Positions 2,243 to 63,960 of a DNA stretch of 64,000 nt are shown piece by piece. The notes below the pieces were generated by a model. It was given only the letters and a program-made list of their open reading frames with translations, did no database searches and was not told the DNA's origin. This DNA is from Leucoraja erinacea. Taxonomy: Eukaryota. Every line of letters starts with the position of its first letter. The stretch's first letter is position 1. A program made the translations under genes and the position numbers. Where the stretch lies: assembly GCF_028641065.1 (NCBI RefSeq), contig NC_073398.1, positions 27,094,001 through 27,158,000 of the forward strand, read 5' to 3'.

Positions 2243-4539
2243 GTTTTCCTTTTTTCTGCAAGGACAAAGGGAAAAAAAAACAGGTTTTAGGAGGTTAAAA
2301 TATGAACTGTGTGCACAACTGGTTACAAGTTTAAAATTGTATAGATCACCGAGTTTCAATTATAATTCCAATGCCTACTATCTAAATATTCTTCCATGCT
2401 TGGTCATTTGCCAGCAATGCGGTCAGACATGCTGTAATTCGCTTGCTGGTCTTCTAGCTGGCTCTGAGCACAGTCTGGAGCTTCCATAAACACCATCAAC
2501 TCCCTATTCCCTTGTAGGAACCTACACTGCCTGGAAATCAGTTGCAATGCCTCCTATTGTAACACTCACTGTTCTATTTTCATTCATGAAGACGGTGACA
2601 ATGAATCCTGCAGACAATGCTAGTTTCCAAAAGAGTCAGAGTTACTCAGCACAGTAACAGCCGCTTCAGCTGAACTCAGCCATATCGTTCAAGGTGGCTC
2701 CCTGAACTAGCCCCATTTACCCATCCCTCAAAACCTTTCCTATCCATGTACCCAAATGTCTTAAATGTTGTAAATGTAACCGAAACCACTTCTTCTGGTA
2801 GCGCATTCCACGCACCCTGCAGTCTATGTGAGAAAATTGCCCCTCAGGTCCCCTTAAAGTTTCTTCCTCTTAACCAGCGTATCATTTAGGACCTCATCAA
2901 AAGCCTTGTTAAAGTCAACAGAGACAACGTCTACCCCCCCATCCTCAACCTTACCAATCCTCCTGGTCGCTTCTTCAAAAGATTAAATTCTAGACACCGT
3001 TTTCATTCACATAGCCACACTGAATATCACTTATCCAAATGCAGATAGACACTGTCTGAGTGATAGGAATAAACAACAATCGGTAAGAGAAAGGAAATTT
3101 TGTATCAAATGCAGCACCTCTACAGGTGCATTGTTTGATGTACTATCTTCCAGAAGAGACGAGGTAGGGGTCAGTCTACTCTTACTGTTTTTCAAGATCC
3201 TGTAATGCTGCAATGAACTTGGGCAAGTTCTTCAATAAATCTGGGGGAAAAGTAGAGTGAAAGGTCTCCAGGATTCAAAAGAATGTCTTGGGATATACAA
3301 GTGGCTCTATCCAATTAAATAATTTCATGCCAATCTTGAGGGGTAAATTCTACATTTCCCCATTATGTTGGTTTAAAAATAAAGCTTACCAAGTGATCTT
3401 AAAGTAATATTCAGTTTATAGTTACATAAATAAATTAAGTATTAAAGCAATAAGTCCATACAGATTTTATACAGTTGCTCTCGTAATTTATTGCACTTCA
3501 TCTTTACACTTAAAGTATAGACCAATAGGTTTCTCAGCTCGATGAATACAGGAGACAATATTCAAAATTGTCAAATGCCATAAAGAAACCTTCATTTGTA
3601 AAACCGCCGCAAAAGATGTACGTAACCGTAGGTCAGTTGCATGGGATTCAATACAATAATATTCATTGTGCCTGCCAAATACAGGCACGTTAATAGCCAT
3701 GATCTTCAAATCTTTACAGGCAATTTAATCCCAATTACTACAGGTTACAAGAACAATTACTCATTGTACTCATAAGACTCCTTTGTTCATTGGCAAGCTC
3801 TGTTTCCTTTTTAAAAAAATGCACTGCCTCATGCAGATCACCATTTCTACCATAAAAGAACCATTTCCTCTGATTGCAGCATCTAAATTTCCTGGAATAC
3901 TGCCACATATATACAACTCTTGCACAGGCATTTCATTTTCAGTCTTGTATTTGCATTCCTCATCAGTCTGACGATCTCTTAACATATTTGTTTATTCCAC
4001 TGCTCTCTCCAAATCAATTTACATGTTTGCCATAACACCTTAAAATATATTTAAAAATAACTGTAACTGAAACATACTACTGACTTTATTGTCTTATGCA
4101 AAATTAAAACTGCCAGCAAGTAAGCTGGCCCAAAGACAGTTCCATACATACCTTGGCTCTCCTGAATAAACTTTAAATCAAACGGGCATGATTAACATAT
4201 CTAGGGTCTCTGCGTAACTTTAATCAGGAAAAGAAAGAAAGAATGCAGTCTTGAGCTACCAACTTTTCCCAAACTTCACTTCATTCTGAAAAGTACTTCA
4301 GTATTTGCTTGTTTAGTGAAAAAATCAATTAAAAAAAAAATTAACAACCAGCACCATACTGTGATGAACTTGAAATTTTATTTCCTAATGCAGTTATTTG
4401 CCTTTTAATAAATTAATTATATTCTTCATTTAAAGACTATCCTACATATTGATCCTCAACTTATAAAAAGTTATTATTTTCAATCCATTCTCAAACATCT
4501 CAATGCTCTCCAAATCCATTTTCAAACTCATAAGTAAGT

Positions 4540-4825
4540 AAGAAGGAACAGTAGAAGCTGGTTTAAATCGAAGATACATAAATAGGAGCAAGAGTAGGCC
4601 ATTCGGCCCTTCGAGCCAGCACCGCCATTCAATGTGATCATGGCTGATCATCCACAATCAGTACCCCGTTCCTGCCTTCTCTCCATATCCCTTGATTCCG
4701 CTAGCCCGAAGAGCTCTATCTGATGGACACATAAAGCTGGAGTAACTCAGCGCGATAAACAGCATCTCTGGAGAGAAGGAATGGGTGACGTTTCGGGTCG
4801 AGACCCTTCTTCATACTGAAGGAAT
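4540..4825. mobile_element. Hairpin-family element arm interrupted by a CR1-like 3' tail (4581-4722, minus)
   Basis: Family arm motif gctggagtaactcagcg...ggagagaaggaatgggtgacgtttcgggtcgagacccttcttca, split by the CR1 tail ggccattcggcccttcgagcc. Confidence 0.65.
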
Positions 4826-5641: not shown

Positions 5642-6149
5642 TAGAAACATAGAAATTAGGTGCAGGAGTAGGCCATTCGGCCCTTCGAGCCTGCACCGCC
5701 ATTCAATATGATCATGGCTGATCATCCAACCCAACTCAGTATCCCGTACCTGCCTTCTCTCCATACCCCCTGATCCCCTTAGCCACAAGGGCCACATCTA
5801 ACTCCCTCTTAAATATAGCCAATGAAGTGGCCTCAACTACCCTCTGTGGCAGAGAGTTCCAGAGATTCACCACTCTCTGCGTGAAAAAAGTTCTTCTCAT
5901 CTCGGTTTTAAAGGGTTTCCCCTTTATCCTTAAGCTGTGACCCCTTGTCCTGGATTTCCCTAACATCGGGAACAATCTTCCTGCATCTAGCCTGTCCAAC
6001 CCCTTAAGAATTTTGTAAGTTTCTATAAGATCCCCTCTCAATCTTCTAAATTCTAGAGAGTATAAACCAAGTCTATCCAGTCTTTCTTCATAAGACAGTC
6101 CTGACATCCCAGGAATCAGTCTGGTGAACCGTCTCTGCACTCCCTCTAT
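5642..6149 (-). mobile_element. Young CR1/HER1-like LINE 3' end
   Basis: RT C-terminus IEGVQRRFTRLIPGMSGLSYEERLDRLGLYSLE...RVVNLWNSLP plus a ctatgttt tail; near-identical to 33555-34058 and 42165-42676. Confidence 0.9.
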
Positions 6150-7679
6150 AGAGATGTGTAAGAAGGAACTGCACACAGCCGAAGATAGGCACAAAAAGCT
6201 GGAGTAAGTCAGCGGGACAGGCTTTAGTTTAGGGGGTGCGGGGCCCAATTGGGAACAATTTTGGTGACCCCCCAGGTTCCCAGCCAAGGTCTGTCAGCCC
6301 AGGTGACCACTCAGTCGTTTTCCCATGTGGAGGATACGACTAACAGTAGAGGGCTTAATCATAGGCTTAAGTTAAGAGAAAAGAGATTTAAAAGGGGTCC
6401 CTAGAGCAACCATTTTACTCAGAGAGGAGTCTGTATCTGGAGTGCAGCTAAAGAAGCGGATACACTGACTTTTAGAAAATACGTGGAAAGATACATGGAT
6501 AGGAAAAGTTTAGAGGGCTATGGTCCAAACGCAGGCAAATGTGACAAGCACAGCATGGATAAGACGGGCAGCAGTGCCTGTTTCCATAATGTAAACCTCT
6601 GAATCAACAACACTATGACCAGAGAATGTTCAATACGATAATATAAAGTAAGATTTAGTCAACATTTTAGCTGTGCCATCTCTAGCTTGGTGAGTTGGAT
6701 GAGCAAATGAAGATGATTTATTATGTTTCCGTACATGAACTTGTCTTCGACCAGTTTGATACAACTGTAGAAAGAGTGAGTGTTTGGGGAGAACACATGG
6801 GATGTGAATATTTCATTTTAGGTTCACCCATGTGGCAGCTTCCGTTTATGGGGCAGGGTGTGTAGTGTCAAGACTTGATTGCATGTTTTACCATGATCAC
6901 AGGAGCATCCTTCGATGACAATTTGGAGACATCAAAGTTATGGAGGCCAATCAAAATGTCTTGAAGAAATTTGTGCTGCATGTTGAACAATAGCTGTGCT
7001 CTGGTCTCAGGAGATTTGATGGACATTTGGAAGCTATTTTTATTCATTTTCTGCCCTGGTAGTATTTAATGGGTTTATATCATAATATTATACAGTGTGG
7101 AAACATACCTTCGGCCCAACTTGTCTGCACCAACCAACATGTCCCGTCTACACTGGTCCTACTTGCTTGCATTTGGCCCATATGCCCCTAAACCTGTCCT
7201 ATCCATGTACCTGTCTAATTGCTTCTTAAACTTTGCGATAGTTCCTGCCTCAATTACCTCCTCCAGCAACGTGTTCCAATCACGACCACCCTTTGTGTGA
7301 GAAAGTTACCCCTCGGATTCCCATAAAATCTTTCCCCCTTCAATATAAACGTATGGCCTCTGGTTCTCATTCCCCATCTCTGGGCAAGAGACTGTGTGTC
7401 TACCCGATCTGTTCCTCTTCCTAACAATAAGTATATTTTTAATCCTGCTCATAGTATGTCTGTCTCATTGTGTTTGCCTGGATAGAGTGCACACAACTTT
7501 ATTCTATTTCCCAAGCTCTGTATAGTGATATGTGATTGCTTTATAAACTGGGAAAAATTGTCCAGTATTCAAATTGTTCAAGGAGGTAATTTAAAAGTAA
7601 TTATGTTATCTAAGTCAAAGATTTTCTTTAATATAAATCAAACAGAATTTGCCTTCCAAAAAAAAAAGTAAATTTAAAG

Positions 7680-7954: not shown

Positions 7955-9639
7955 CTACACACAAAGCGAACTGATGTCATGAAACACGCGAGTGTCAGCT
8001 ATCAGAGCCCCAGTATTATTGTTTCACCTTATCAATATCTTAATTTTAAAGAGCTGTGTGTTCTTTTCAATCAGCCACTGACTTTAAATGAAAACTAAAA
8101 CCTTCAGATTATCTTGATCATCCCAACATGCCTCTGGAATTGGGGTGCTAGCCTGATTATGTTCAGTGAATGTAGTATATCATGCTTGAGATGTCCATAC
8201 TGAATGTCCAAGCACCCTACTAGAGGAGAAGATTAGATGTACTTCCCACAATTCCATTATTATATATTTGATTTTTCTGAATGTCTCACTTTTTCTTTAC
8301 ATTACGAAAAATACTGATGAACTCCTCAATTAAATGAGTTTATCACTACCCATAAAGATGTACTTTTATTATTGAGACCTCTCTGTGAAAGGCTAAGGCC
8401 ATAGTGCAAGGTGGATAAAATATATTATTAAACAATTTGGGATGGCTATCCTTCCATGCCTATACAATTGTATAATAGTTATCTTAGTTGTGAATAGTTT
8501 AACATAAAATGAGGATATAAAATCAAAAGTGCATGGAATTGAGTGTAATGTATTGGCACAAATTGAAAATTGGTTAACAAACAGGAGCCAGTAGGAATAA
8601 ACGGGTCTTTCATGGAGTGGTTGGCAGTAAGTGGTGGTTACTATTAGGATCATTTTTCAGCTTCAGCTTTTCAAAAAGATTATCAATGATTTACATGAGG
8701 GAACCAAATGTAGATTTTTTTTAATTTGCACTGGTCAAGGTTGCATTATGAATTGTGAGGAGGACACAAAGGCTTCGGTCAATTTAGACGGATTGAGCAA
8801 AAAGCATGTCAGATGAGATATAATGTGGATAGATATGAAATTATCTGTGAATGTTTCCACTGGACATAAAACTTAGCAATTGGGAATGTTGCTGCACAAA
8901 GAGACTATGATGTGCTTCTACAAATATAAAGGCCACAGCTGAGTTAAGAAGGCAAATCGAATGTTAGCCTTCAGGGCCAAGAATGTCCTGCTGCAGTCTC
9001 ATGAAGGATCTTTAATCTGAAATATTAATTCTGTTTCTATTTCTGCAGATAGTGTCTCTCCTGCTGAGTGTTCCCAGCATTTAAAAAATGTTTATTCCAC
9101 TCTTAACATCAATATTGTTTGAATTTGATTTTAGTTTATTGTCATGTTTGCCCGAGGTACTGTGAAAAACTTAAACAATGAAACATTTAAACTCATCATT
9201 TCAAAAATACTAACTTTTTCCCCCAAAGTGGATGTCCTCACATTTTTGCACATTATATTCCATGATATAAATTGATAAAAAGAAACTTAAGCATAATCTG
9301 CCATTGCATATCTCATACTGATCCTATTATAAAGAGCTTCACAATTTATTCAAATATATAAACAATCTTGCATGAATTTAATTTTCTTTTACACAAATGA
9401 TTGAATTCCTGGAGCCCAACCTGCAGGATTATTTGACTTTTGAAAAAGCAGAGCGGAAGATACCCCTCGGAAATATGAGTTAAAATCAGAAAATAGTTTG
9501 AAGTGAAACTTTCCACTTGCATATCCTTATGACTTGCAACTAATACACAGACACCTAATTATCATCCTGTATAATTCCGATAGACCTCACTAACAATCTA
9601 ATGTGAGTTTAGATGTAAATAATTGGTGTTTTCTGTTAC

Positions 9640-10350: not shown

Positions 10351-11045
10351 TATTGTTGCCGGATGTTCCATGTGAAAGGAGGCATTCAGTCATTAATATA
10401 TGCCAAATTTTAACAATACTTCACTTTGTGAATGTTGTGTGAGCATTTACTGTATTTAATCAATTTGCACTTATGCAGCCTCTTTGATGTTGAAAAATGT
10501 CCTGAGGCGTTCCCAACACATAAAAAAGGAAAAATAAGATATAAGAGAGTTCAGAGGTGTGACTAAATGTAATAGACATGGAAACGTTGTCCCTCACGTT
10601 TCCATTAAATCCTTCCTCTCTCACTTTAACCCTATGTCCTCAACCATGATTCGCCTACCCTGGATAAAATTCTGTGCATCCACCCTATCTATGCCCATGA
10701 TTTCATACACCTCATGTAACCCCCTCAGTCTATTGCATTTCAAGGAATGTAGTCCCGCCCAATTTATTTACTTAAAAACCAGTGCAGCAGTTCAACAGTC
10801 CCAACAGTAAAATGCACTGATTATTTAAAGAGTAACAGACACCACTAGACGTGAGAGAATATCTGTACCATACGTGAATATGTAACATTGGCTGAGAACA
10901 GCATCCAGCAGTGCCTTAGTCCAATTTTTATTTGAATTTGAAATCAGACCAGAACCTGCTTTAGAATTGGAGGTGGCTCATGTTAAAAACATAAGCAAAA
11001 GGCCCAATTCTTCTAATAGACTATACTATTGTAAGAATTCCTTAC

Positions 11046-11522
11046 CAATCTTTCACGGAGACTTTGTCGTTATTCTTTCCGGAAACTGATTGTGATCTGA
11101 TTGTGCATCTTGAAGATTCGGAACTGGGAACATCAGACCCATCATGTGTTTCCTTTCCAACCAACATCTTGTTTCTTTTCCAAACTCCTATTTTAGTATT
11201 TGCTGTAATATTGCTCCTGATGGGAATGTTACGGTCGGGTTTCTGTGCATCATAAGTGAATTTCTCAGAGCTAATGACTGAGGTTGAGGAGCTCCTTGAA
11301 TCACACAGGGAGGACTTGGGGAGGTTGATATTGGCATCTTTGAATGTTATTGAGAGTCCGGCATAAATTATGTGAATAAGTTCTTCCCAGAGCTTGAAGA
11401 CGTGGCCAGGGTGCTTGTCCTGTAGCTGGAGGTAAAATGTGCTACGATTGGCCAGGACCAGCTTTAAACAGCGACTGACCTTTGCATGCACACTCAATCT
11501 GACCAATTTCATGGGAAGCATC
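11046..11522 (-). CDS. GARIN-like exon 3 (DUF3699 core)
   Basis: MLPMKLVRLSVHAKVSRCLKLVLANRSTFYLQLQDKHPGHVFKLWEELIHII...; AG at 11524-11523, GTaag at 11045-11044. Confidence 0.87.
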
Positions 11523-12364
11523 CTTTCATAGGAGACAAAACAAAACATTCAAAAATCTTTTCTCTGATATTTTGGTTTCTTAATCAGTTGATAAAATCAG
11601 TATTTTGTGCAGAGCAAAGCTATACCAATTAACAAGCTTGTAAGAACACATAATAAATATGGTAGATAATCAGAACCTTTTCGCCAGGGTGGAAATGTTA
11701 AAGACCAGAGAGCATAGTTTCAAGGTAAGAGGGGCAACGTTTATTCACAGTGCGGTGGGTGGCTGGAACGCGCTAGCAAGGATGATATTGGAAGCAAATA
11801 TGATAATGGCATTTAATAGGCTTTTAGATAGGCACATGGATATGGAGGGACATGGATTATGTGCAGGCAGAGGAGATTAACTTGGCATCATGATCAGCAC
11901 AGACATTGTGGGCCAAAGGGCATTATCTCGTGCTGTATTGTTCGACGTTCTATAATAAAAACGTTTTATTCTATGGGTTTTTTTCTTACCCCTTAGATGG
12001 AGGAAGTCTGAGGGGTAAGTTTTTCCACAAAGGACGATGAATATCTGGAACAAGATGTGCCTGATGAGGTGATAGAGGCAGATACAACTGCAATGTTGGA
12101 AAGGAATTTATATAGTAAAGGCATATACAAACTAATGCAAGTAAATCGGATTGGCATACATTGACATCACAGTCAGCATGGAGTAGATGGACTGAGAAGG
12201 CCTGTTTGTGCTAGACTATTATATGATTCCCTGGTTAAGCAACTCATTTTAGCATCTTAATTCTCTGGGGTTCAGGACTGGAATCTTGCTAATTCAGAGA
12301 AAACTGTTCTGAACATTATAATTGAGTAACCAATCAACAATTTAGAAAACTGTCTCACTATCAC

Positions 12365-12531: not shown

Positions 12532-13928
12532 CTGTATTTGAATCAAATATTAAATGGTCAAAATGTCATCTTTCTGGCAGAGCATCCCCATCCCTGGGCA
12601 CTACATGTAACATGTTCATTGAGCATTTGAGTGAGATGGGTGAAGAACTGCTGTAAACACTGTTCAACCTCAACATAAATTGTCATTGAAACAGTACACG
12701 GAACAATGATGATGCAATAAAGCAATTACACAATTGAATATAGAAGGGTCCCGACATGACCCGAAACGTCACCTATCCATGCTCTCCAGAGATGCTGCCT
12801 GCCCTGCTGAGTTACTCCAACGGTTTGTGTCCTTTTGTGTTAACTAGCATCTGCAGTTCCTTGTTTCAACAGAAGTGTAGTTCTGGATTGGAAACATCTC
12901 ACAAACATAAACAAAACTGGATTAGTGTTCAAGCTTGTGTTCCTAATTGACATGAGCAATATCACTGAAACAGAATAACTGGTAATTTACTACATCTGAT
13001 ATCAGGACACAGATGAGCATGAAATAGATGATTATTTGGCTAAAGTGCCCAAAATCGAAATAATATTTATAACATGCAAGGAGATTTAATTCATCATGTA
13101 TGTGTTGATCAAAAAAACAGCTAACCAACCTAATCACACCTACCAACACTTCATCCATAACCCTGCAGTGATGAGGATTTCTTCCTCTACTATCCTTTCA
13201 GACAGTGGGACTTGACCTTTACATTGCCCTGGGAGGGGGAAAAAAATCATCATCTTCCATCTAAGCATTTTTCAAATTACTTTAAGTCTATCCCTCCTGG
13301 GGTTTGCTCCACAGCTAAGAGAAGTAGGTATTTTGTTTCCCCTCCCCCTCCCCAACATTGCCCAATTAAGCTTCCCCTCAGCTTTTGCTGTTCCAAAGAT
13401 AATAGCCTCATCCAAACCCTATACCTAATGCATCCCATCCAATATTTTCAGCGCTACAATTTTCCAGTCCGAACAACATCCTCATAAATCTATTCTGCGC
13501 CTTCTCTTGTGTAATCATAGAACTGCATACAACATTTAGGTTATGGCATGACATACTTTGTTAATACCTCCAGCATAACCTCCCTTCGCTGGTATCTTAT
13601 ACTTTGGCTAATGTAGGAAAGCATCCTGTTTGCCTTTGTAACTCCCTTATTAACCTGTCTTGCTACTTTTAAAGAGGTATGAACATAAATGCAGAGATCT
13701 CTCTGTTCTTCTACACCTCAATATCCTTCCATTTATTATTTATTTGCTTGTTGCACATCCTCAAATCTATTACTTCTCTTGCCAGGATTAAATTATGTCA
13801 CTTTTCTGACCAATTGACCAGTCCAACTACATCTTAGGGCAAAACATTGCCAGTTCCCTGTCAACAGCATGATCAATAGTTTAAGAAGGGTCTTAAAGAA
13901 GGAAATATAGGGAGAAACCCACACACCC

Positions 13929-14215: not shown

Positions 14216-15300
14216 AAAAAATTATTTTAAAAAAATAAATAAATATAGAAGAAGAAAAAATGTAGAGAGAATTCCTGAGCCCAGGGCCTTGTCAGCTAAA
14301 GTTAAAACTTATAGGCAGTGAGTTTCCGCCAGTGGAGGATCAATTCAATTAAGGGATGATCAGGAGGTCAGAATTGAAGAAGTACTGTTTTCTGAAAGGA
14401 TTGCAGGACTGGAGCAGATTACAGAGACAAGGGCAGAGTAGATCTTGGAATGAGCTGCAAACAAAGTGAGAATTTTAGAAATCATCACACTGTATTTAGG
14501 AACCCTGGTTGGCAATAAATGTGCTATCGCTAGAATCATTTGATGTCAGTTTCAACGTATGTAGAATTTTTAATAACAACAAGTTTGTGAATAATAGAAT
14601 GTAGAAGGCCTACCACAGTCTATTTGAAAAGTCACTGGAGGTAGAATGGCATAGCTGAGACTTTCAGCAACAGGTGAATTGAGATGTGCAGCAGGGCCAC
14701 ACTATGTCACAGAAGTAGAAAATAAGTGACACTGTGGTTAGAAAGATCATTTCTGGGTCAGAACAGACATCTAGTTGCAGATCACCATTGTTCAGTTTAA
14801 AACAGATACCAGGCAGAGGGATGACATCAGTAACAAAGTCTGTGACCAAATTTAGCATATGGCTTCAGCCGATCCAATATTCAGTGTGATGAAATATCTG
14901 TTCATCCAGTGCTGTTTGTTGGATAAGATGTTTGACACCATAGGGTCAGAGAGGGGCTGACTTGAAATGAAATTCTTGGACTGGCTAAAGGAGTTACTAA
15001 AAAAGATTTTGAAATTATCAAATGACATTTGTGCAAAGCAGCAATTGACAAAAGAAGCAACATGTGGAGATATAATCCAAAAGAGAAAAAATACAGTATA
15101 GGTTTGGAAGGATGCTGTTATATTAATATCAAAAGTACAATCAAGGAAAGGAACATGGAAAAATGTTACACCAACTCTGAAATTATCCTGATTTCACATG
15201 TTTTATATATAACTTTTAAATTTATTTGGATGGCACAGAACTCATACAGGAGCCAAACCAGCGCTCAATGAAAATGGAAATTGAACTTAGCTTAAACTAA

Positions 15301-15478
15301 ATGTTTAAGAAAGAACTGCAGATGCTGGTAAAATCGAAGGTAGACACAAAATGCTGGAGAAACTCAGCGGGTGAGGCAGCATCTATGGAGAGAAGGGTCT
15401 CGACCCAAAATTTCGGCAATTCCTTCTCTCCATAGATGCTGCCTCACCCGCTGAGTTTCTCCAGCATTTTGTATCTAC
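15301..15478. mobile_element. Palindromic hairpin element (Penelope-like derivative) with 15-bp TSD
   Basis: Arms aaaatgctggagaaactcagcgggtgaggcagcatctatggagagaagg and their reverse complement; flanked by cttagcttaaactaa at 15286-15300 and 15479-15493. Confidence 0.8.
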
Positions 15479-16067
15479 CTTAGCTTAAACTAATCCTTAA
15501 GTGAGTACAACAAGGAAAAAGGGATTAAAAAGACTTGCTATGGACAAATAACAGCAAATAAACAACAATGAGAGAAAATGCATGAGAATTATATATAGAG
15601 AAAAAATTAGAAAATATATTGTTTAAGGGAAATATAAGCAAAATGTAATTAATTTTCCTTCCAGTTATGCAAATTTAGTTTTTTACTTTTTGCCATGAGC
15701 AAGACATTGGGAGATGAACTAGTTCTGGATTTTTGAAGAAACCTGAATGTAAATCTAAATCACAGTTTGCATCTCCATACTATAACAATGAATCCTACTT
15801 TTGATATCACATCAGTAAGATATTATTAGTATTGTGGACAAGTTTCCCGAGCACCTTGCAGTTTAATCAGTCTGACCCGATTTTCTAGACTGCACCCACA
15901 TGGCATGAGCTGTGGATGCTTGCCAGAGTTGTAGATTTGTTCATCTTTTCCCATCCTTTTATTTTTTTGTACTAATCTATGTATTGAACATCAAAAAGTC
16001 AATGCCATTGTGTGTCACATATACTAACATAAATGTTTACCTGACTTTTCTTGTTTTTTAATCAGGT

Positions 16068-19361: not shown

Positions 19362-20379
19362 TAACATCTAGCTATAACGCCTACACAAACCACTTATTCC
19401 GAGGGGCAGGTTGGAGAATGGATGTTGACTTTGACAATTATGTCTGTGTGGATACTTTAAATAGGGAACTCCACTAGGTGTAATGTGGACCGTAGACATA
19501 AGAGATTACAAATGCTCGATTCTTGAGCAAAAAAGAGTGCCGGAGGAACTCAGCAGGCCAAGCAGCATCTGTGGAGAGAAAGGGACAGACAACATTTTGG
19601 ATCAGTGTAAAGAAGGGGTCCTGATTCAAAACATCATCTGTCCATTTCCCTCCACAGGTGCTGGCTGGCTTGCTGAGTAACTCCAGCACTTAGTTTTTTT
19701 GAATCTGCACTGCGTCATTTACCAAAGTGTTCCGTGGACACCAGGAGACAGCTGTAGACCAGTAATATATATTATGGTATGTGGAAAAGTAACATATTCC
19801 AACATGAGAACAATCAAATCTCTCATGACCTCAATTCCAAAAAATCAATAAAGGTAACACTTACTTTGCACTTTCAGCTTAGGTGAAAGCACCTTACGAC
19901 AGCCAAGCCTGAGGAAGAACCCTCCCTTTAAATATTTGATGGTGAGCTTGACTCACTGAATTTGTAATCGTAAAGTTACCTTCTGACTCACGAGAAAGAA
20001 ATTCTCAAATATATATTTCAGCCAAGACTCCATCTACATAGATTTCACCTGACCCTACAGACCATATAACCATATAACAATTACAGCACGGAAACAGGCC
20101 ATCTCGGCCCTACGAGGCAAGGAATGGCTCAATTACCAGGACCAGAGGTATCTAAGGCGTTCTATTCATTAACAGTGGAATTGTCCATCACCTGATTTCA
20201 AGTTTATTATTAAAACTTCATGAATTTAATTGTACAGTAATGCCATAGGTTTAAAATATCCAACTTAGGCAAGATTATGCATTAACAGAAACAAACAATA
20301 ACTTCATAGGCAAACATTCTGTTCAGATGGTTTAGTTGAGTGATGTTTAGTGGTCAGGTCAGGGAAAAAACCTCATCTT

Positions 20380-22255: not shown

Positions 22256-23904
22256 CCTAAATGTTTTGAATAGAATGATTAGGTGGGCACCTAATGTCTC
22301 GTAGCTTCAGTGATCCCGGTTCGATCCTTAACTCTAGTGCTATCTTTTGCATATTCTCCCTCTTTCAGTTTGCTCCCACATACCAAGGATGTGTGAATTG
22401 ATAGGTTAATTGGCCATTATAAACAGCTCCTAACATGTAGGTGAGTGGTGGAATTCAGTGGGGAGAATAAAATGACATTAGTGTAGGAATGTCATATTAT
22501 TCTCTAATGATGTTGTAAACGGATGCTTAGTGGCTAACATAACTGTATGGAAGTGCCTGTTTCTCTGATTTTGTAATTTTTCCCTACTTTTTAAGTTGCT
22601 ATTTGCCCTGCCCTTTTCAATTCCCCAGTTTATCCACTGTGGCCTCTTTCATAGAATTACTTCTCACAGCCATAATTCATTGAATCATAGCAATTTACAG
22701 CCTAGAAGTAAGCTATCATGCCTATCTTGTCTAGAATTTTCAGGTGCTCATCAAGATACTTTTAAAATGTTTCTGCTTTCCTCACACCTTCAGCAAGTTT
22801 GAGTAAAACAATGTTTTCTCAACTCCATTTTAAACTTACCAATCAACTTAAATCGGCATTCCTTGTTACCGACTTCTCTGTTAATGGAAATAAGTTATTT
22901 CTTTTTATAACCTTCTGAAAACTTTAGGCACCTTAATTCAATATCCCAAGTGGCAGTGTGAGTTGTGAGGAAGATGGCAAAAAGATTCAAAGAAAGGTAG
23001 ATAAGCTAAATGACTGGGTGAGAACAGGGCAGATGCAAATGCAGTTTAGAACAATGTGTGGATTCCACTTTGGTAGGAAGACAAGAAAAGTAGAGGATTT
23101 TTTTTAAATGGTGGGAGGTTGAACATTGTTGCTGTTCAGAGGGACCTGGGTAACCTTACACAAGAATCACTGAAAGTTACATACAGGCATCTCAAGCACT
23201 TAGGAATGAGCTATTTACCTTGAGAGACGTTCAAATGCCAATGGCATGGATCTAAAGCACATGGTAGAAAGATTAGAGGGGAGATGACACGTTGTGGAGG
23301 GAACAGTCCCTGTAGAAACCGGTGTGGACGGGAAGATGTGACAGGTGGCAGAAATGTAAATCAGCTATTTGCATAGTCTGCAAATCCTCCGTCTACAATT
23401 CATGGTCGGAGGCTATCAAATAAATTACTTTTGAAACTGACTAGGCAATCTCTTCTATTGACACTTATAATGTACTTTATCAAACAATGTAACATCCATT
23501 GATATTTTAAGGTCATCGAAACTATCCGTTGGATATGGGCCATTCTGTTTTGTACTATTGTAACACATCAAAGACAATAAATAATTGTTTATGTCAATCC
23601 ACTCAATGAAATTGTGTCTGACAACACCCAACCTAGAACTGGGACTCCCTGTATTTAATTGTGCTGTTGCAGGGGAAATCAAGGATAGTTAGAGAAGGGT
23701 TTTTTTGTGCATTGAGTACATATCAGCTCCATGCAAAAGTACAATAGTTATCATTTCTTCATAGACTTTAAAATTGTTTCACCTCACATACTTCTCTGAC
23801 TCAGTTTTGAATGCTTTGATTGAATTCATCTCCACTCAATGCATTTCAGACTAACAGACTTGAAACAGCTATATGTCAGGACCACAATCTGAATTCTTCT
23901 GAAG

Positions 23905-24035
23905 TGTGAAGAAGGGTTCTAACCCAAAACGTCACCTATTCCTTTTCGCCAGAGATGCCGCCTGACCTGTTGAGTTATTCCAGCATTTTGTGTCTATCTT
24001 TGGTTTAAACCAGCATCTACAGTTCCTTCCTATAC
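23905..24035 (+). mobile_element. Hairpin-family single arm
   Basis: gtgaagaagggttctaacccaaaacgtcacctattcc...cagcatctacagttccttcc. Confidence 0.7.
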
Positions 24036-24479
24036 ATATGTTGGGCCCATCCAGGTTTAAGAGAAATTGATTGTGAAAAGATTTCACAAAGGTGTGCCCT
24101 TTTTCCCACTAAATCGAATTCCTTATGGGCACTTTATCTGCAAATATTGAATATGGGCCTGATCCAACCAGTCTTGGCTGAGTATTCGTCCTGCACTCAT
24201 GAAACAGAAAGAAGCTGTGAATTGTAGTGGCTCAGTTTAGCGGAGCTGATAGATTAGCAAAAGAAAATCTGCTTTTTGTTACCAAAAGGTCGAATCATGA
24301 AGCAGGCCCTGCAGTCCACCATGTGCCGACTGACCATGTGCTGACTTAAGTACACGTCCACACTAATTTTATTTTATTCTTGTCAGATTTTAGTTATTAT
24401 TGAGAAATCATATTTTGAATATTAAATCAAGTAATTTGAGCTCTTCTAAAAAGTGTGGAAGGAAACGGACTTTTTAATT

Positions 24480-24705: not shown

Positions 24706-25967
24706 GTTAGGGAAGAGGAAGCAGTGTGCACACGTTGGGAACAGCAACAGCAGCAGCAGCAACGTGGTGCTGTTGTAGTCGGGGCTGTTGTCCTGCTGCT
24801 GCACTTTGGTTTTGGGTTGGTGGTCGGTTCAGTGGAAGGGGTGATATGAGTGAGGGGGTTGCTCCCTTTGATCAGTGGCTCAGGCTGACGGGACCCCACC
24901 ATCTCGACGTTGTAGAATTATAACTCACCATTATGACCACCATTTCAGTGGGCTTCACCTGTAACGAGCTTTTTTTTCAACATAGCATATATAAATTTAA
25001 ACACACACCGTGAATCACGGTCAGCAAAGCAAGAGTGATGACAAAAATGCTGGAGAAACTCAGCGGGTGAGGCAGCATGGACAGCAGAGTTAAATCTGCG
25101 TTGAAGGTTGGCAAGATACCAGAAAAATCTTTAAGTTTGATCTGAAGTTTCTTGATCTAAGGTTGTCAGCAGTCTTGCTAACGCAGAAGTTGCTGGAATG
25201 ACAGAATTGCATGAAAATTCATAGAAAAGTGGGAACTAGACGCCCTTCAGATTGTATTAAACGGAAAAAGTAAGGTATCTTAATTATAATGGGGCAGTGG
25301 CATGGAACCCCATGAAGCATTTACCTCATGATCTATATTATTAACGGATTAAACTTAATGTATAAGGAAGAAATATGATTGGCAGAAGTTATGAGTTAGC
25401 GTTATTAGGTATAGACAAGGATATGTAGAGGAATTGATTCTGATTCTGTTCTGAAGATAGGCACATAATTGAGGAGTGACTCAGCGGGACAGGCAGCATC
25501 TCTGGGGAGAAGGAAGGGAAAGTGGATTGGGTGAGAAGAAGTTGAAAGAATAATACATCTCAACATAGCACAACTTCTGGCTGGAGTGAGAATTAATAGA
25601 TTTGTTTTTTTGGGCCTTCAAGTTTGAGTTCGTTGGAATTATTAATCCTCTCGATAGAATGGCTTTTACAAAGTGGATCTCCACCCCCTTGTGGTTCAGA
25701 ACAATAGATACTGGCCACTATTTTCAAATCTATGCAGGTGTGGGGCCTGAAGAATGGATTGATATCTTCTGAATAATTTGAGTAAAGTTGACAATTAAAT
25801 TTAAAATTAAATTTCCAGTGCAGGATTGTCAAGTCATGATTTACATGGAATAACAGTCTATGCTTCCACTTTATATACATGTGATGCTGTGCAATTTGGA
25901 ATGTTGTAATTTATATAAGCAGATTTTGATGCAGTGCAGTAATTGATTTTTTTTTCTCTCTGTCTAG

Positions 25968-26111: not shown

Positions 26112-26793
26112 GTGAGTGCCGCAGCTTTCAGGACAGATAGGACTGTCTGCCAGGGTAACCAATAACGTAGTAGCTCAAACATTGCATTTTTACATAGTCA
26201 GCAAAAAAGTTCATTCTTTCTATTAACTGCAGGTATTAAATATATTTGGACGCTCTCAAAACATTTTATAATTTGCATGGACTCGCAGCATTTTGGACTC
26301 TTCTCTACCAGTGAATTCTCTACATTATGTTATGCTGTAGATTCTGGTATATGCAGTTTGTTGTGTCGTCACTGTGATTTTCAAGCCTGCTTCATTGATG
26401 AAGTACAATCACAACCATAGGTTCAATGTTATCTCCTGACAGTGAGTTGGAGAGACCTTCAATAAATGCTGTTGTTAATACATTGCATTTCTGAGCTCCA
26501 GTGACTTCAGCAAGTTAAGGTTCTGCTGTATACTGGATAAATAGAGTTTGGTTTTTGCATGTATATTTCATCCTGGTGTTAGAATCCGTAGTGACTTGGT
26601 TGAGAGCCCTCTCAACTTTTGAGTTAGAATGTTGCAGACCCACTCCAGAAATCAGCATAAATATTTAGGCCTCATTCCAGTGCCAGTACTGAAGCACATT
26701 GACACTGTTTGAACCTCATCATTCAAATATGTCAAAACTGCAGAAATAAAAAATTACATACCCTTCATTTGAAGAGGAGCAGTTAAGTTATAC

Positions 26794-26886
26794 CTGAAGA
26801 AGGATTTTGACCCAAAAAAATGCCTATTTCCTTTGCTCCATAGATGCTGCCTCACCCGCTGAGTTTCTCCAGCATTTTTGTCCACC
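26794..26886 (+). mobile_element. Hairpin-family single arm with 12-bp TSD
   Basis: Starts at ctgaaga; TSD taagttatacct at 26784-26795 and 26887-26898. Confidence 0.72.
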
Positions 26887-27239
26887 TAAGTTATACCTCA
26901 TGTCGATGCCAATACTAATTCCCCAATCTGTTTTTGCAAAAGAGATTATTTGTATTTTATCATTCAGTACTGAAGGTCTCTTGATCAAAAGAGTTGTATG
27001 AAAACTTAAGACCAGTCTCTTGCTAGTCTCTACAAGGTATGAAATAGCAGCACAAAATTACCTTTAAATTGGACAGGTTTCCAGTTATACTTTTAAGTAA
27101 TCTGAAAATAGGAATAAATATTGGGGGATAGAAATGAAGGTGGGATAAATATGCTCTGTTGTTTTACAGAGGGATCTTTACCCTGTATTTAAACTCAAGG
27201 GATTTATACTGTGTACTGACCAGGAATACTGAAAACACA

Positions 27240-27460
27240 AGATAGACACAAAAAGCTGAAGTAACTCAGCGGGACAGGCAACTTCTCTGGAGAGAAGTAA
27301 TGGGTGACGTTTCGGGTCAAGACCCTTCGACCTGGAACGTCACCCATTCCTTCTCTCCAGGGTTGCTGCCTGTCCCGCTGAGTTACTCCAGCTTTTATCT
27401 ATCTTGTCTATTTTGTCTTATCTTCGGTTTAAACCAGCATCTGCAGTTCCTTCTTGCACC
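27240..27460. mobile_element. Palindromic hairpin element with 13-bp TSD
   Basis: Inverted arms; TSD tactgaaaacaca at 27227-27239 and 27461-27473. Confidence 0.8.
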
Positions 27461-27536
27461 TACTGAAAACACACTTGTTTATGAAATCATTTTCATTAAT
27501 TTAAAATAAATTAATAATTACGTTTTAATTTTACAG

Positions 27537-33554: not shown

Positions 33555-34058
33555 CCATAGAGGGAGTGCAGAGACGGTTCACCAGACTGATTCCTGGGAT
33601 TTGTCAGGACTGTCTTATGAAGAAAGACTGGATAGACTTGGTTTATACTCTCTAGAATTTAGAAGATTGAGAGGGGATCTTATAGAAACTTACAAAATTC
33701 TTAAGGGGTTGGACAGGCTAGATGCAGGAAGATGCTCCCGATGTTAGGGAAGTCCAGGACAAGGGGTCACAGCTTAAGGATAAAGGGGAAATCCTTTAAA
33801 ACCGAGATGAGAAGAACTTTTTTCACGCAGAGAGTGGTGAATCTCTGGAACTCTCTGCCACAGAGGGTAGTTGAGGCCAGTTTTTGGCTATATTTAAGAG
33901 GGAGTTAGATGCTTCTTGTGGCTAAGGGGATCAGGGGGTATGGAGAGAAGGCAGGTACGGGATACTGAGTTGGATGATCAGCCATGATCATATTGAATGG
34001 CGGTGCAGGCTCGAAGGGCCGAATGGCCTACTCCTGCACCTAATTTCTATGTTTCTAT
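33555..34058 (+). mobile_element. Young CR1/HER1-like LINE 3' end
   Basis: Near-identical to the reverse complement of 5642-6149. Confidence 0.9.
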
Positions 34059-35824: not shown

Positions 35825-36512
35825 GTAATACAACAACTCCTTACAGCTTATGAATAAATTAAAGTTGTGGGGAGTAAAGAGTTCGGGGACATTTTCCAGT
35901 GTTTTCCCACTCAGCAGCTTTTCCTGCAGTTTGTTGCTCATCTTTCTTTACTACAACATTAATTGCATTTATGTAGCATCCTCAACATAATTCCAGTGAA
36001 TGCTTCGATTCCAATAAGAGTATACATTCCAATAAGTCTTAAAAGGACAGAAAAATTGGTAGGTTTTTTAGAAATTTAATGAATGACAAAGAGGAATATG
36101 TCGAGAAGGTTTTCAGATGTGAGGTGATTTAATTTCAATGTCCAAGAGGCCAAAACTGAAGGAAAGGAGTGATCTACAAGGGTTGTAGAATTGATAAGTG
36201 ATGGAAATTGGAAGGATTAGAGCCTGCAGATATTTGAACTGAGCTGTTTAAAAAAAAAAAGACGAAGTGCCGGTGTAACTCCAGCACCTGCAAACTCCAT
36301 CCTCCTGTATGCACCGCCCCTTCTCATCCCACTGCCAGACCCAATCAACCCCATTCTCATTTTTGTAAACCAGCATCTGCATCCTTGTATCCACATGAGC
36401 TGTTTTAAACTAGGCTTTGCTGAACCGGGTGTGAGTGTTGCTAGTCAGGAAATAATTTTCTCTTGTAGTGCCATTTGGAATTCTCAATGCAATACATGGT
36501 TATTATTGACAG

Positions 36513-41531: not shown

Positions 41532-42676
41532 ATTAAAGCACAAGGCATTGGGGGTTCAGTATTGATGTGGATAGAGAACTGGCTGGCAAACAGGAAGCAA
41601 AGAGTAGGAGTAAACGTGTCCTTTTCACAATGGCAGACAGTGACTAGTGGGGTACCGCAAGGCTCAGTGCTGGGACCCCAGCTATTTACAATATATATTA
41701 ATGATCTGGATGAGGGAATTGAAGGCAATATCTCCAAGTTTGCGGATGACACTAAGCTGGGGGGGGCAGTGTTAGCTGTGAGGAGGATGCTAGGAGACTG
41801 CAAGGTGACTTGGATAGGCTGGGTGAGTGGGCAAATGTTTGGCAGATGCAGTATAATGTGGATAAATGTGAGGTTATCCATTTTGGTGGCAAAAACGGGA
41901 AAGCAGACTATTATCTAAATGGTGGCTGATTGGGAAAGGGGGAGATGCAGCGAGACCTGGGTGTCATGGTACACCAGTCATTGAAGGTAGGCATGCAGGT
42001 GCAGCAGGCAGTGAAGAAAGCGAATGATATGTTAGCTTTCATTGCAAAAGGATTTGAGTATAGGAGCAGGGAGGTTCTACTGCAGTTGTACAGGGTCTTG
42101 GTGAGACCACACCTGGAGTATTGCGTACAGTTTTGGTCTCCAAATCTGAGGAAGGACATTATTGCCATAGAGGGAGTGCAGAGACGGTTCACCAGACTGA
42201 TTCCTGGGATGTCAGGACTGTCTTATGAAGAAAGACTGGATAGACTTGGTTTATACTCTCTAGAATTTAGAAGATTGAGAGGGGATCTTATAGAAACTTA
42301 CAAAATTCTTAAGGGGTTGGACAGGCTAGATGCAGGAAGATTGTTCCCGATGTTAGGGAAGTCCAGGACAAGGGTCACAGCTTAAGAATAAAGGGGAAAT
42401 CCTTTAAAACCGAGATGAGAAGAACTTTTTTCACACAGAGAGTGGTGAATCTCTGGAACTCTCTGCCACAGAGGGTAGTTGAGGCCAGTTCATTGGCTAT
42501 ATTTAAGAGGGAGTTAGATGTGGCCCTTGTGGCTAAGTGGATCAGGGGGTATGGAGAGAAGGCAGGTACGGGATACTGAGTTGGATGATCAGCCATGATC
42601 ATATTGAATGGCGGTGCAGGCTCGAAGGGCCGAATGGCCTACTCCTGCACCTAATTTCTATGTTTCTATGTTTCTA
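41532..42676 (+). mobile_element. CR1/HER1-like LINE, 1.1-kb RT fragment with frameshifts
   Basis: [13 protein letters not shown]...[22 protein letters not shown]...SKFADDTKL; YRVLVRPHLEYCVQFWSP; 3' tail. Confidence 0.93.
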
Positions 42677-45728: not shown

Positions 45729-46525
45729 GTAAGAGCTAGTGACAATGACATTGTAGTGATATTGGGGGAGGAATGCACAGACACGTTTATGGAAGAGGAA
45801 AGAAAACAAAGGGATACCTGACTTTTCTTGATTAGTACAGGTGCCAGAAGTGTATTGGGGAGAAGGCAGGAGAATGGCATTAGGAGGGGGAGATAGATCA
45901 GCCACGATTGAATGGTGGAGTAGATTTGATGGGCTGAATGGCCTAATTCTGCTCCTATCACTTATGATCATATGACCTGACTGTAAATCCACCTCCTGTA
46001 GTTTGCAGTAGTAATGCTTGAGAGAATGAGCCCAGCTGGGGCAGCAGTCAGGTAGAATATTTGAATCATTTTATTAACAGTGTTGATAAAGTACTTTATC
46101 ATATGATCATAAGTGATATGTTTTTGAAATATTAAACATTAAACATCCGACCTCTAGTACTGGATTCCTGTACCTTGCGAAGGACACTGACCATTTACCT
46201 TATGTATGTCCCTCATGATGTTGAATGCCTGCCTTAATAAGGTAATTCCTCAGCCTTCTACAACCCAGGGAAAAAAACATTCCAGTCTATCCATTTTAAC
46301 TCGAGTCTTCAAATCTTCATATGGTCCTGGTTAATTTTTGCTGCATCATTTCTAGCTTAATGGCATCTTTCCTATGGCTGGGTGACCAGAACTGCACACA
46401 GTAATCCAAATGTCTTGTACGGCTGTAACATGATGTCCCAACTCCTGCACCCAGTGCCTATATTGATGAAGACGAGTGTTGCAAATATCTTCTCACCAGA
46501 GTTAATACATATCTCAAATAGTTAA

Positions 46526-46718
46526 AAATGAGCTGCTGGAGGAATTCAGCAGGTCAGCCAGCATCTGTGGAGGGACTGTCGATATATCGGGTCAAGACTC
46601 TTCATCTGGGCTGAAAGGTCCATTTCTCTCCACCGATCCTGCCTGACTTGCTGAGTTCCTTCAGCAGCTCTTTTTTTGCTCCAGATACCAGCATTTGCAT
46701 CCTCTTGTGTCTCAAATG
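46526..46718. mobile_element. Degenerate palindromic hairpin element with 10-bp TSD
   Basis: Inverted arms; aaatagttaa at 46516-46525 and 46719-46728. Confidence 0.65.
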
Positions 46719-47362: not shown

Positions 47363-47452
47363 GTGAGTGAAGCCAAGTTAGGTGGGACTGTTCCGATTGG
47401 GATTGCTGAGATGTTTGGGGTTTGAGGTGGCATTGGCTTTCGTTGGCTCCAG

Positions 47453-47668
47453 GGTAGACATAAAATGCTGGAGTAATTCAGCGGGACAGGCAGCATCTCT
47501 GGAGAGAAGGAATGGGAGACGTTTCGGGACAGACTGAAGTCTGAAGAAGGGTCTCGACCCGATATGTCACCCATTCCTTCTCTCGAGATGCTGCCTGCCC
47601 CACTGAGTTACTCCAACATTTTGTGTCTACCTTCAATTTAAATCAGCATCTGCAGTTCTTTCCTATAT
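47453..47668. mobile_element. Palindromic hairpin element
   Basis: Inverted arms around ctgaagaagggtctcgacccgatatgtc. Confidence 0.78.
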
Positions 47669-48570
47669 ATTTAGTCCAAGCTCCAGGCTTTGATTTAGGG
47701 CTGCAGTTGGGACATAAAACCTGAAGGCTTTCTGCACTTTGGACTAGGCAGAAACCGTCCACCCCCTGGTCATGTGTTTAGATACAACAGAGAAGGGCAG
47801 GATGCAAGTCTCTACTAATAGTGAAATAGTTTTGGACAAGATTGTTTTTGGCCAAAATCCCAGTTTCTATCAAGCTTACATTAAATAAATATTGCTTTTT
47901 CTCCAATAGTTAGTCCACTACATTCTTCAATATTTCACCTATTCCCCTCAGCAATTAGTGGGGAGACTGGGAATGTTTCCACGCAGTGCCCCCAAATTTA
48001 CATCAACACTCATCCCCATTATGAGAAATGTTTTCTTAAACGATCAAGTAAGAGAAGCAATTCTTTCCTGGGAAAGTGTTTGGATGTTACTGCTCTTAGA
48101 TTCAAAATAGTTGACAGGGGACTCATTTGTAAGAGTAGGAGCTAAGAAAGCTGGGGAGAATCTAGATTGAATATAATTTGAAGAGCTGGTGGGGTGATGT
48201 ACGATGTATTGAATTACCCTTTTTCAGAGCTGTAAGATCATATATGTACCCAATACAGGGGCAGAGGTCCCATCCTTTCACTGTCAGAACTAATCTGAAT
48301 AAGACGGGAATCGGAGACTAAATCTTACACTTCATACTTTTATACTTAAATTTCATACTTTAGATAGCATTCCTTCTATGCCTGTTCTTTGCTGGTTACA
48401 TAGAACGTCTTGTGCATTGTGGAAGAGGGATATCTTAAGGGTTAAAGAGGACCCTGCCTCCATTAACTGACATGAGATACTTCATTGATCAGTGTGCGGT
48501 GCTTTAATGCTGTGTCTCTTTCGAATCTGTAATATGATTCTCTCTGCTTTCCGTTCTTCCTCTGAAACAG

Positions 48571-55566: not shown

Positions 55567-56334
55567 TGCAATACCAGGAATGCTCATAAGAGCAAAAGAT
55601 AAATGAAAAGAGCCACCCTGTCCAACTCATCCATGCAAAAATAAAGTTTCTTACGGCTCCCAATGCATTATATTCCATTTGCCACTGCACACATTGGTTC
55701 AAACTCCTACTGCTTGGATTCTCTCCAAACCCACTTCATCTGAGGTTAACATTACTTAATGATTTCCCAAATTCAGCAAACTCCAGATCACGTGCAGTAT
55801 CCCGTGTAATTGATCCTTAATACTTTCCATTCAACAGGATAATCCCATAGTCCCAGCAATTTGGGAGCTATCTTGTTGCCTAAAAACACAGTCCAGTTGG
55901 ATTTTTAATGTCAGGGCACTATTTGAGAAGCAGCATTCATTCCTCCCAAATGATACAGCAATGATGCCAAGCGTTAATGATCTAATCAGAAGGTTCAATC
56001 AGCAGTGAAGATGCTGATTAAATCTCTTCGAATTCACTATTGCTAATTTTTTCCGATGTGGATGTACTTGTCCTTGCCATTTTTCAATTAATCTGAAACT
56101 TCTAAATGACAGAAACAAAGGATTTTTTTCAGAATATAGATTGACTTTCCAAGCTGCCCTTTCCAAAAATCCTTAGACACACAGCAAAACCATAGTTCAC
56201 TTCACCCTTTACTGTTATCTTTCCGTCTGTCTCAAACCTTACAAACTTCTCACTGCTCACCTTAATTGTTACGCTTATAACTGATCATCTAAGGTCTTCG
56301 TCTCGCTATCGACTCTGCCCAACTGTCCCTTGTA

Positions 56335-61500: not shown

Positions 61501-63349
61501 TTATATTTTGTTGTGGAACACACAGATTGAGCTGTTTGGCAGGCAGACCTCCGCACAGGTACTGATGAGCTCTGCGATGCCAGTGGTGTACTGTTCTCGG
61601 TTAGATTGTCCGCTGAGCCCTTGAATGTGGAACAGAGCACTGACTCGGACAATGACGTAGGAACTCACCTGTTTCCTCAGTCCAGCACTATGCCATTTTC
61701 TGCACCAGATCCTCTCACTTCATTTCCTGAGGATCTGGTGCTGAAAATTACAATGCATATCCCAATTTGGACGCCCATGCATTATGATTTCATCATGAGG
61801 CCCCTTACAAACTATTGTGGATGCTTACAACTTGCCATGAGTTTGTAATAAATTGTCAGCTTTGTTTAAGTGAGAGATAGTTTATAGCTTAGAATTTATT
61901 GAAAGAGACAAACTGCAATCTCCAAATTATATTTTGAAAGAAAAAAATGTATCTAAGCTATGCTCCGCCTCTATAAGAGACTATTCCTTACCTGCTTCAT
62001 GAAACAGTATAGGGACCACACCTCACCTTGTAATGTTCCATTAGCAGTTTTGAGGGCATTTTTTACTTGATTTGTACTGTCACTGCCCCGCACGTATTTG
62101 TTGGGATTGATTAGACACTACATTGCTCTTCATCTCACCTGCCCAGAGTGTGTCTGATGGAAATATGTAGCAGGACCTTTACTCCGCATATAACTTGTGC
62201 TGTGGGAGGGTTTTATGTTGCTGTTGGATGCAGAGAGCAGGAAAATATTTCCATTTACTCAGGGTAACAGCCCTCATCTTGAACGGATTCCAATTCTCAT
62301 TATTTTGCCGTATCCTTGGATACCGATGTAAGCACATTTCCAACCCCCACCCTCCAGGCTGAGCAACAGCAGAGTTTTTAAAACTCATCAGTCAGTCACT
62401 GTGTCGACGTCAAGCTGGGTATTTTAAAGGACCTTTGGTTTGCAAGTGCAAGCATCTAAAACCAGTGACTAAGGTGGACAGAAACAGGTCAAAGAGCTGT
62501 GTAACCTGCAATGTGAATGCTCACGGTTTATTGATGATTCATGGACCCAAACCTCTGGTCCGTGATGCAGAAGATCAAACATAAGTGATGTTGTGCCAGT
62601 GGTGAAGGATATTCCTCCCGCAGGCAAATATTTTCAGAGTTATGCTCGTCTCTGAGACAAACTCCAATGGCTGGAGGCCAGCAAGCACAGGAAAAATTAA
62701 ATTGCTGTGAATTTTAACTGGTTGCTCTCCAAAACATTGAGGTCAAAGTCTTGTTTGACTGCATGTCTCCTGAGGAAGCTGTGTTTCTTGTTAAAGAAAT
62801 CATTCATGTATGCTTGGCTGGTATCCTCCCCCCCCCCCCCCTGTTTCTATAACAACTTCATGCCCCACTATCCAAAGAGTCCTATATAATCTTTATACAC
62901 CTTTATTTTAATCAGTCCTTCGCTAGTAACTCTGCCGCCAAACCGTCTGGAATTCTCTCAGTAAACACTTGACTCTTTGCACCTCTGTTCTGTCTAGATA
63001 CTCCCCAAAGCCTTATTCGCAAATGTTTTGGACACTTGTTCCAACATCTCCTTGTGCGATTTACATTGACAATGCTCCTTGGAATATTTTATGGATGTCA
63101 TATAAGTCCAGGCCAATTTTCAAGAATGCCTACATTGGGTGACAATTAAACACTCTTATCATTTTGTCCCATGACCTGTATAATCAAATGATTATTTGCT
63201 TTTGTTTGTTTTACATAAACGTTCCATAAACTGAATAATTCTAACAATATCCACCGGATTATGTTTCTATCGGTCTCTATGTTTCTAGACGCTAAAAGAC
63301 TTACCCGAGCATCTGGGTACTACTTCTAAAATTGCAAACCAGGTTCAGT

Positions 63350-63442
63350 CTGAAGAAGGGTTGCGGCCCGAAACGTTGCCTATTTCCTGCGCTCCATAGA
63401 TGCTGCTGCACCCGCTGAGTTTCTCCAGCATTTTTGTGTACC
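63350..63442 (+). mobile_element. Hairpin-family single arm with intact hammerhead-like core
   Basis: CTGAAGA-A-GGGT-tgcg-GCCC-GAAAC-GTT at 63350-63377; ttcagt is duplicated on both sides. Confidence 0.72.
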
Positions 63443-63890
63443 TTCAGTATGACAGCAGGTCTGAGAAATAGAAAACTATGAATAAGAGCAGATAGTTTAG
63501 TCCTTGGAGTCTTTCCTTCCATTTAGGCATTTGACTGCATCTGCTGCTATTTTCAAAAGCAAAGTTTCCTACCCTCACAAAAGAAATGCCCATCTCTGAT
63601 CTTTTCGGTTGCATCTCTAAGTCCTAAATTCCCAACCAGCAGAAATAGTTTCTCCCTGACTACATTGTTATCCCTAACACTTTCAAAAATATCACTAAAT
63701 GCCATTCATCTTCCTAAATTCCAGGCAATAAACCTCTAGTTTGGGTCTTTGCACTTAAGAAGTAAGCTGTGAAACGAAATATGGTAAACCCACATGCGTT
63801 CTTACCGGGGCCAATGCATGCTAAGTAATGAGGCTGAAATCTCCATGGAATTCCAGATGTGCTCTAACCAGCGGTTGGCATAGATATCAG

Positions 63891-63960
63891 CTGAAGAAGG
63901 GTTTCGGCCCGAAACGTTGCCTATTTCCTTCGCTCATAGTTGCATGAGTTTCTCTCTTTT
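63891..63960 (+). mobile_element. Hairpin-family arm with hammerhead-like core
   Basis: CTGAAGA-A-GGGT-ttcg-GCCC-GAAAC-GTT at 63891-63918. Confidence 0.6.

Follow-up and report, generated by a model that had tools for sequence, protein, structure and literature searches.

Palindromic repeats of a 64-kb window as probable 5′-truncated pLTR insertions of a resident RT/GIY-YIG Penelope-like element

How did a short mirror-image repeat related to hammerhead ribozymes arise at positions 15286..15493 of the window (the whole 64-kb stretch of DNA analysed here), and does its ribozyme motif still act? The insert (15301-15478, 178 bp) is a head-to-head palindrome between perfect 15-bp target site duplications (TSDs; 15286..15300 and 15479..15493, + strand). 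Its long arm, on the - strand, consists of a 38-nt tail (15301..15338), which is element sequence between two 3′ end points and continues into the N-terminus of an open reading frame (ORF) in tandem copies, and of a hammerhead-free pLTR body (15339..15396) that is 5′-truncated about 37 nt downstream of hammerhead C3; the whole long arm matches an ORF-linked pLTR (L037) at 90 of 95 positions. The short, tail-less arm (15391..15478, +) begins at AGAAGG, a 6-nt microhomology common to both arms at the inversion junction (15391..15396), and therefore has no CUGA; it carries a helix-II remnant (15395-15406) without a hammerhead core, and its GAAA reads AAAA at 15407. Each arm thus holds sequence missing from its mate. 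Long hairpins are predicted on either strand (-114.8 and -121.2 kcal/mol), in line with the double-stranded RNA anticipated when this element was first noticed from the sequence alone.

A profile search of the window identified 21 arms belonging to 15 elements, bearing out the copies listed in that sequence-only reading except the one at 36255, which is a degraded trace (E 0.088). The same reading placed a complete motif, CTGAAGA...GAAAC-GTH, at the inner end of each arm. The whole core occurs in only two of the 21 arms: a young solo short arm (63346..63445, +; core 63350-63377, helix I of 2 bp) matching the pLTR of the full-length L132 at 97 of 100 positions, and a young 3′-truncated solo arm (63887..63943, +; core 63891-63918, zero helix I pairs in register) matching it at 48 of 48. 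The two cores lie on the same strand, 541 nt apart. The remaining copies comprise an arm with altered C3 interrupted by another repeat (4534..4822, -), a coreless 5′-truncated tailed arm (6154..6222, -), a degraded arm (8991..9082, +), a solo tailed arm without CUGA (12739..12872, +), a solo tailed arm with altered C3 and G12 (23900..24040, +), two coreless arm fragments (25042..25078 and 25440..25515, both -), and a solo short arm with a broken GAAA (26792..26892, +). The other palindromes, which have no single strand, are an old head-to-head pair with broken cores (19494..19699) and three short+long pairs, one lacking CUGA in both arms (27233..27462), one old with broken cores (46518..46718) and one with altered GAAA (47448..47672). 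The long, variable TSDs listed earlier (15, 12, 13 and 10 bp) were confirmed: beside that of the focal copy we find 12 bp (26784/26887), 13 bp (27227/27461), 10 bp (46516/46719) and 8 bp (47446/47680), and the other ten of the 15 elements have flanking repeats of at most 7 bp.

Pfam matches among 148 of 286 candidate frames in the window reveal a GARIN/FAM71-type, Rab2-binding exon (11045-11548, -) and the RRM exons of a multi-RRM gene (24504-47422, +). This pairing presumably recalls human GARIN1/RBM28. Several repeat copies accordingly sit between RRM exons. Of the proposed placement in introns of three genes, only this much emerged from these matches; they revealed neither a third gene nor an intronic position for the focal copy. 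A PLE (Penelope-like element) coding remnant was looked for in the window and none was found.

The parent element is present elsewhere in the source genome. A GIY-YIG search gave 150 scored matches at 30 loci, and at 17 of these the arm lies 3′ of the GIY-YIG frame, on the same strand and beyond a pyrimidine-rich stretch, beginning 375-520 nt past the start of the Pfam match; eight further loci represent a second PLE family and the others are interrupted. A query from the 5′ portion of the coding sequence identified partial tandems at 8 of the 30 loci, ordered ORF end, pyrimidine tract, core, arm, tail, ORF start. In L132 such a unit measures 3,933 bp from core to core and contains RVT_1 and GIY-YIG matches with one frame break. 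RVT_1 matches reach 26.7-27.3 bits, under the Pfam cut-off of 29.6, and every one of the ten long loci examined has at least one frame break or an incomplete end. At L083 an inverted arm adjoins a truncated 740-codon RT-EN frame, and inverted 5′-truncated copies with a one-sided tail of 30-40 bp are present (e.g., L134; 38 nt in the focal copy). With linked RT and C-terminal GIY-YIG regions, pLTR-forming partial tandems, inverted truncated copies with a tail and variable TSDs, the window repeat is the pLTR of an endonuclease-positive (EN+) PLE that has its RT/GIY-YIG partner in the same genome, as had been suspected.

Translations of the element contain YIDD, a CX4CX2C linker and two cysteines between GIY and YIG; a PDB sequence search gave no match. 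A CX2-5CxxC linker before EN and cysteines inside GIY-YIG are described as marks of the Neptune/Nematis clades (PMC8557442), and by these predicted motifs, which do not separate Neptune from Nematis, the element belongs there. The descriptions of Neptune/Nematis elements share with ours an RT with C-terminal GIY-YIG bearing two cysteines and a CX4CX2C linker, as well as pLTR-forming partial tandems, an adjacent inverted 5′-truncated copy, a 30-40 bp tail at one end and a variable TSD (PMC8557442, PMC3846280). The present family, assigned to these clades by motif only, differs in consisting mostly of short end-stubs at very high density, with a long+short pairing that is quantified below.

The second PLE family has an unbroken 759-codon RT and GIY-YIG frame at L081:1560-3836 (G000:C23 start) and further loci at L031-L033 and L100 (C37 end, C39). 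Its EN region is identical at three loci, at least two of which lie <4 kb from a contig end, and (CCCTAA)n follows about 200 nt past the stop at each of the three. It is thus endonuclease-bearing yet seemingly attached to telomeres, a habit described for EN-deficient PLEs.

Blind sampling of 90 stretches (900 kb in total) yielded 430 arms, approximately one per 2.1 kb, which extrapolates to about a million arms in 2.19 Gb. Most insertions are end-stubs of 60-240 bp. Head-to-head pairs account for 146 of the arms (73 pairs), compared with six tail-to-tail neighbours, and 284 arms are unpaired, 28 of them joined to the element body. The body-linked count over all arms (29/430) is a lower bound, the upstream library comprising 17 references; in the youngest subfamily, half of 30 sampled copies having the commonest upstream base (15/30) continue into the body. 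TSDs of 7-17 bp flank 35 of the 55 young copies with a definable 3′ end (70 young loci in all), against 2.6% in the control. Direct repeats of at least 8 bp flank 23 of 72 palindromes (5.5% with swapped flanks) and 41 of 248 solo arms (control ~5%), several of the latter being internal tandem artefacts.

The 3′ ends of the arms are bimodal, with a short end and a tail end about 37 nt apart. Solo arms use both (115 short, 100 long), and the palindromes divide into 50 long+short, 6 short+short, 3 long+long and 14 unclassified pairs. Long+short pairs thus make up 50 of 59 classifiable palindromes where 29.4 are expected (p=2e-8), with end classes taken from profile boundaries and cut-offs chosen after viewing the histogram. 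The two mates of a palindrome agree at subfamily-diagnostic bases more often than expected (0.80 vs 0.53), and junction 20-mers are distinct in all 73 palindromes, although this could partly reflect age. At the other end, 239 of the 430 arms reach the 5′ edge of the core; 5′ ends crowd 2-5 nt before the core; they are ragged, densest 2-3 nt ahead of C3, and tail off to about -19. Starts within 3 nt of the predicted cut site number 9 of 430, against 29 and 24 in the neighbouring windows, and no arm ends there. Since copy ends avoid the cut site, the templates appear to have been uncleaved.

We consider it probable that the stubs are 5′-truncated pLTR insertions of the resident RT/GIY-YIG PLE, each one likely the product of its own round of target-primed reverse transcription, with uncleaved element RNA as template, and likely inert once inserted. 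Under this scheme the endonuclease would nick both strands 7-17 nt apart, giving rise to the TSD; reverse transcription would begin at either of two internal sites ~37 nt apart, producing the short or the tail end, and would mostly halt near the 5′ border of the hammerhead motif. Where both nicks prime, one would take the distal and the other the proximal site, and the two cDNAs would join by microhomology, either AGAAGG/CCTTCT or TCAG-T-CTGA, which is self-complementary and borders the core on its 5′ side, into a long+short head-to-head palindrome. Judging by the shapes of the insertions, the mirror image is likely the trace of simultaneous copying from the two cut DNA strands. In 19 of the 50 long+short pairs each arm carries sequence absent from the other, as in the focal copy, so that neither arm is a plain copy of its mate.

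A comparable system is PAc, a Poseidon element of the green anole, for which the available account describes nicking and extension of both strands, a pair of internal RT start sites on either side of the tail, and a predicted dimer (PMC11167929). Like our family, PAc has its hammerhead ~100-130 nt upstream of two insertion end points and uses an uncleaved RNA template; it belongs to a different clade, Poseidon being without the linker motif, and its sites were demonstrated in vitro whereas ours derive from genomic ends. The PAc start site is the same between strands in vitro (PMC11167929), and such a strand-independent start does not by itself predict the long+short rule. A more specific model, which we offer tentatively and rate somewhat short of an even chance, is an ordered twin priming in which a protein dimer would nick the two strands, use one uncleaved pLTR RNA as template two times, once per internal start site, and join the cDNAs at the self-complementary edge of the hammerhead. 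The main role of this region would then be to stop the RT and mark the joint rather than to cleave. If this were true, the roughly one million stubs in this genome would record that integration step. Among the openly accessible papers listed in our literature searches, none combines "twin priming" and pLTR, and none describes the window repeat family in cartilaginous fishes, the group to which the host probably belongs.

The closest competitor shares the Penelope origin and has the palindrome form by fold-back (self-priming) of one cDNA or of an antisense template, followed by deletions at the centre. The core's 5′ edge is self-complementary, near-perfect centres recur, and an originally perfect fold-back palindrome that lost its middle by microhomology deletion would show the same asymmetric centre; self-priming has also been proposed for rotifer PLEs (PMC3846280). 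Short snap-back junctions recur in unrelated loci and subfamilies (L001, L003, L018, L217), indicating that fold-back also occurs. As the general route we nevertheless judge it rather unlikely, because the tail-less arm of the 19 asymmetric pairs, some of them little diverged and flanked by intact TSDs, holds 5′ sequence missing from the tailed arm, and because fold-back alone leaves unexplained why the second arm stops at the short end used by solo arms.

We also observed head-to-tail micro-tandems (359 matches genome-wide; L211-L222, a cluster of 43-nt units at G000:C16:2.45-3.65 Mb, and G000:C1:162023479) whose units each cover the arm's first 35-45 nt, whole core included; they often lie at the inner end of an insertion. 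They look like repeated re-copying of the template's 5′ end, and judging from their arrangement are places where a tandem hammerhead dimer could form.

With regard to the motif itself, the claim of a minimal type-I hammerhead is borne out for the family majority: CUGANGA, GAAA and UH are present in the majority sequence of all six rough subfamilies, among which flanking positions differ, and the exact core motif has 62,112 matches genome-wide (reversed control, 0). The further claim that the family seeds ribozyme cores was overstated, as all core bases survive in 77 of 430 sampled arms, 24 of which have helix II and the 15.2/16.2 pair preserved as well. Conservation of core relative to flanks had been named beforehand as a test, and its outcome is that the core is no more conserved than the flanks: among 100 arms, mismatches to the majority affect 6.7% of core sites and 7.5% of invariant flanking sites (p=0.46), implying that the core is unprotected after insertion. 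Core position 7 is almost invariant and nearly always A. Helix II has 4 bp with G10.1-C11.1 in the majorities, and its changes, including the variants previously quoted as keeping the stem paired, are one-sided, with no compensatory covariation seen. The short helix I noted earlier (~2 bp) is a property of full-length elements as well, with at most 2 bp at all nine ORF-linked or neighbouring cores listed, short of the 4-5 bp of a minimal type-I hammerhead. An Rfam search of the window, which had been suggested as a check, returned eight matches at E<=5, none of them a hammerhead; five are to hairpins of miRNA-like or related type, all below the gathering score.

These data bear on whether the stubs might act as functional ribozymes cleaving host pre-mRNAs, or as a retrozyme-like RNA that spreads itself. 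The number of intact core motifs genome-wide, the 359 adjacent head-to-tail cores (counted with a different pattern from the single-core matches), the co-orientation of the 63350 and 63891 copies and the abundance of the arm in RNA reads of a related organism would be compatible with such activity. Helix I has at most 2 bp at the nine cores listed, however, and helix II is predicted with a pairing probability of 0.01 in both intact window copies, where an alternative hairpin is favoured. The core is not conserved above its flanks, and DNA copy ends do not accumulate at the cut site. Moreover, palindrome cores lie on opposite strands, which makes a tandem dimer between them impossible. Published accounts describe weak cleavage of minimal PLE hammerheads even as dimers (PMC4209133) and, for the anole PLE, a hammerhead that depends on protein and that insertion in vitro does not require (PMC11167929). 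We therefore regard working ribozymes as very improbable; most stubs, including the focal copy, no longer have the ribozyme core and are likely inert. In the preferred scheme of target-primed pLTR insertion, selection would keep the hammerhead in master elements only, where a tandem partner and probably element protein would be needed, and the motif in stubs would decay neutrally. An origin as a MITE or another type of DNA transposon carrying terminal inverted repeats, suggested by short, palindromic and highly abundant copies, can be dismissed given the variable 7-17 bp TSDs, the unequal and mostly solo arms, and above all the identity of the arm with the end of an RT/GIY-YIG element.

The RNA data, drawn from three runs of raw reads of a related organism plus one contig set, fit stubs riding in host transcripts, as the arm is covered hundreds of times deeper than the ORF start and 64-94% of arm-matching reads continue into unlike sequence. 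Such libraries are unsuited to catching ribozyme ends, and a site rich in molecule ends was not listed. Promoters of PLEs are described as located in the pLTR (PMC2377424). Upstream-base counts gave no clear G excess of the kind expected from a cap-derived G at the transcription start: the base preceding AGT is C in 7,681, A in 688, G in 424 and T in 325 cases, and a shorter pattern (base preceding GT) gave 2,832 non-A cases, with G in 38 of the first 100 listed. The TCAGT at the core's 5′ edge presumably resembles an initiator. In older subfamilies (L037, L040, L055, L057 and others) the ORF stop overlaps GT and the pyrimidine tract closes with a CAG that a single base separates from the core, an intron-like arrangement. 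PLEs retain introns. An intron running from the ORF stop as far as the AG preceding the core is nonetheless unsupported: one assumed spliced junction has 0 genomic matches against 9,910 unspliced, the GT is lost in the youngest subfamily, and the spliced joint is absent among the matches listed (15 of 116) in RNA reads.

Inverted pLTRs, one-sided tails and TSDs are already described (PMC3846280, PMC8557442), as are minimal hammerheads (PMC4209133). The metazoan PLE motifs in the latter account share CUGANGA, an extra base before helix II, G10.1-C11.1, self-complementary 15.2/16.2 positions and an absent helix III, and are mostly single dispersed motifs with some opposite-strand pairs (PMC4209133). 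The family studied here, known from sequence alone, differs in its 4-bp helix II, 2-bp helix I, nearly constant A at position 7 and lack of observed compensatory covariation; a 2-bp helix I is described for a D. virilis variant (PMC4209133). Non-LTR retrozymes are likewise presented as PLE-derived non-coding sequences with a type-I hammerhead (bioRxiv 10.64898/2026.07.22.740005). Retrozymes form head-to-tail tandem units, none of which were found in the window, where copies are solo or head-to-head; the micro-tandems found elsewhere are a small minority. Since minimal hammerheads of PLEs are already in the literature and the majority of copies here are broken, the ribozyme side adds little. 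The value of the family lies in a very large natural data set on PLE integration, and the long+short rule and the crowding of 5′ ends before the core yield predictions testable in the published in vitro PLE system. Its tens of thousands of intact cores, along with numerous predicted hairpins in introns, also make this a good genome in which to ask whether any PLE hammerhead cuts in cells.

Two further repeats were observed in the window. A 2.2-kb element at 56330-58526 has terminal inverted repeats of ~230 bp and a Tc1/Tc3 transposase HTH match at 57676-57969. A second young family is represented by three copies of another repeat's end (5642-6149, 33555-34058 and 42165-42669) that are 97-100% alike and that we take to be CR1-like.
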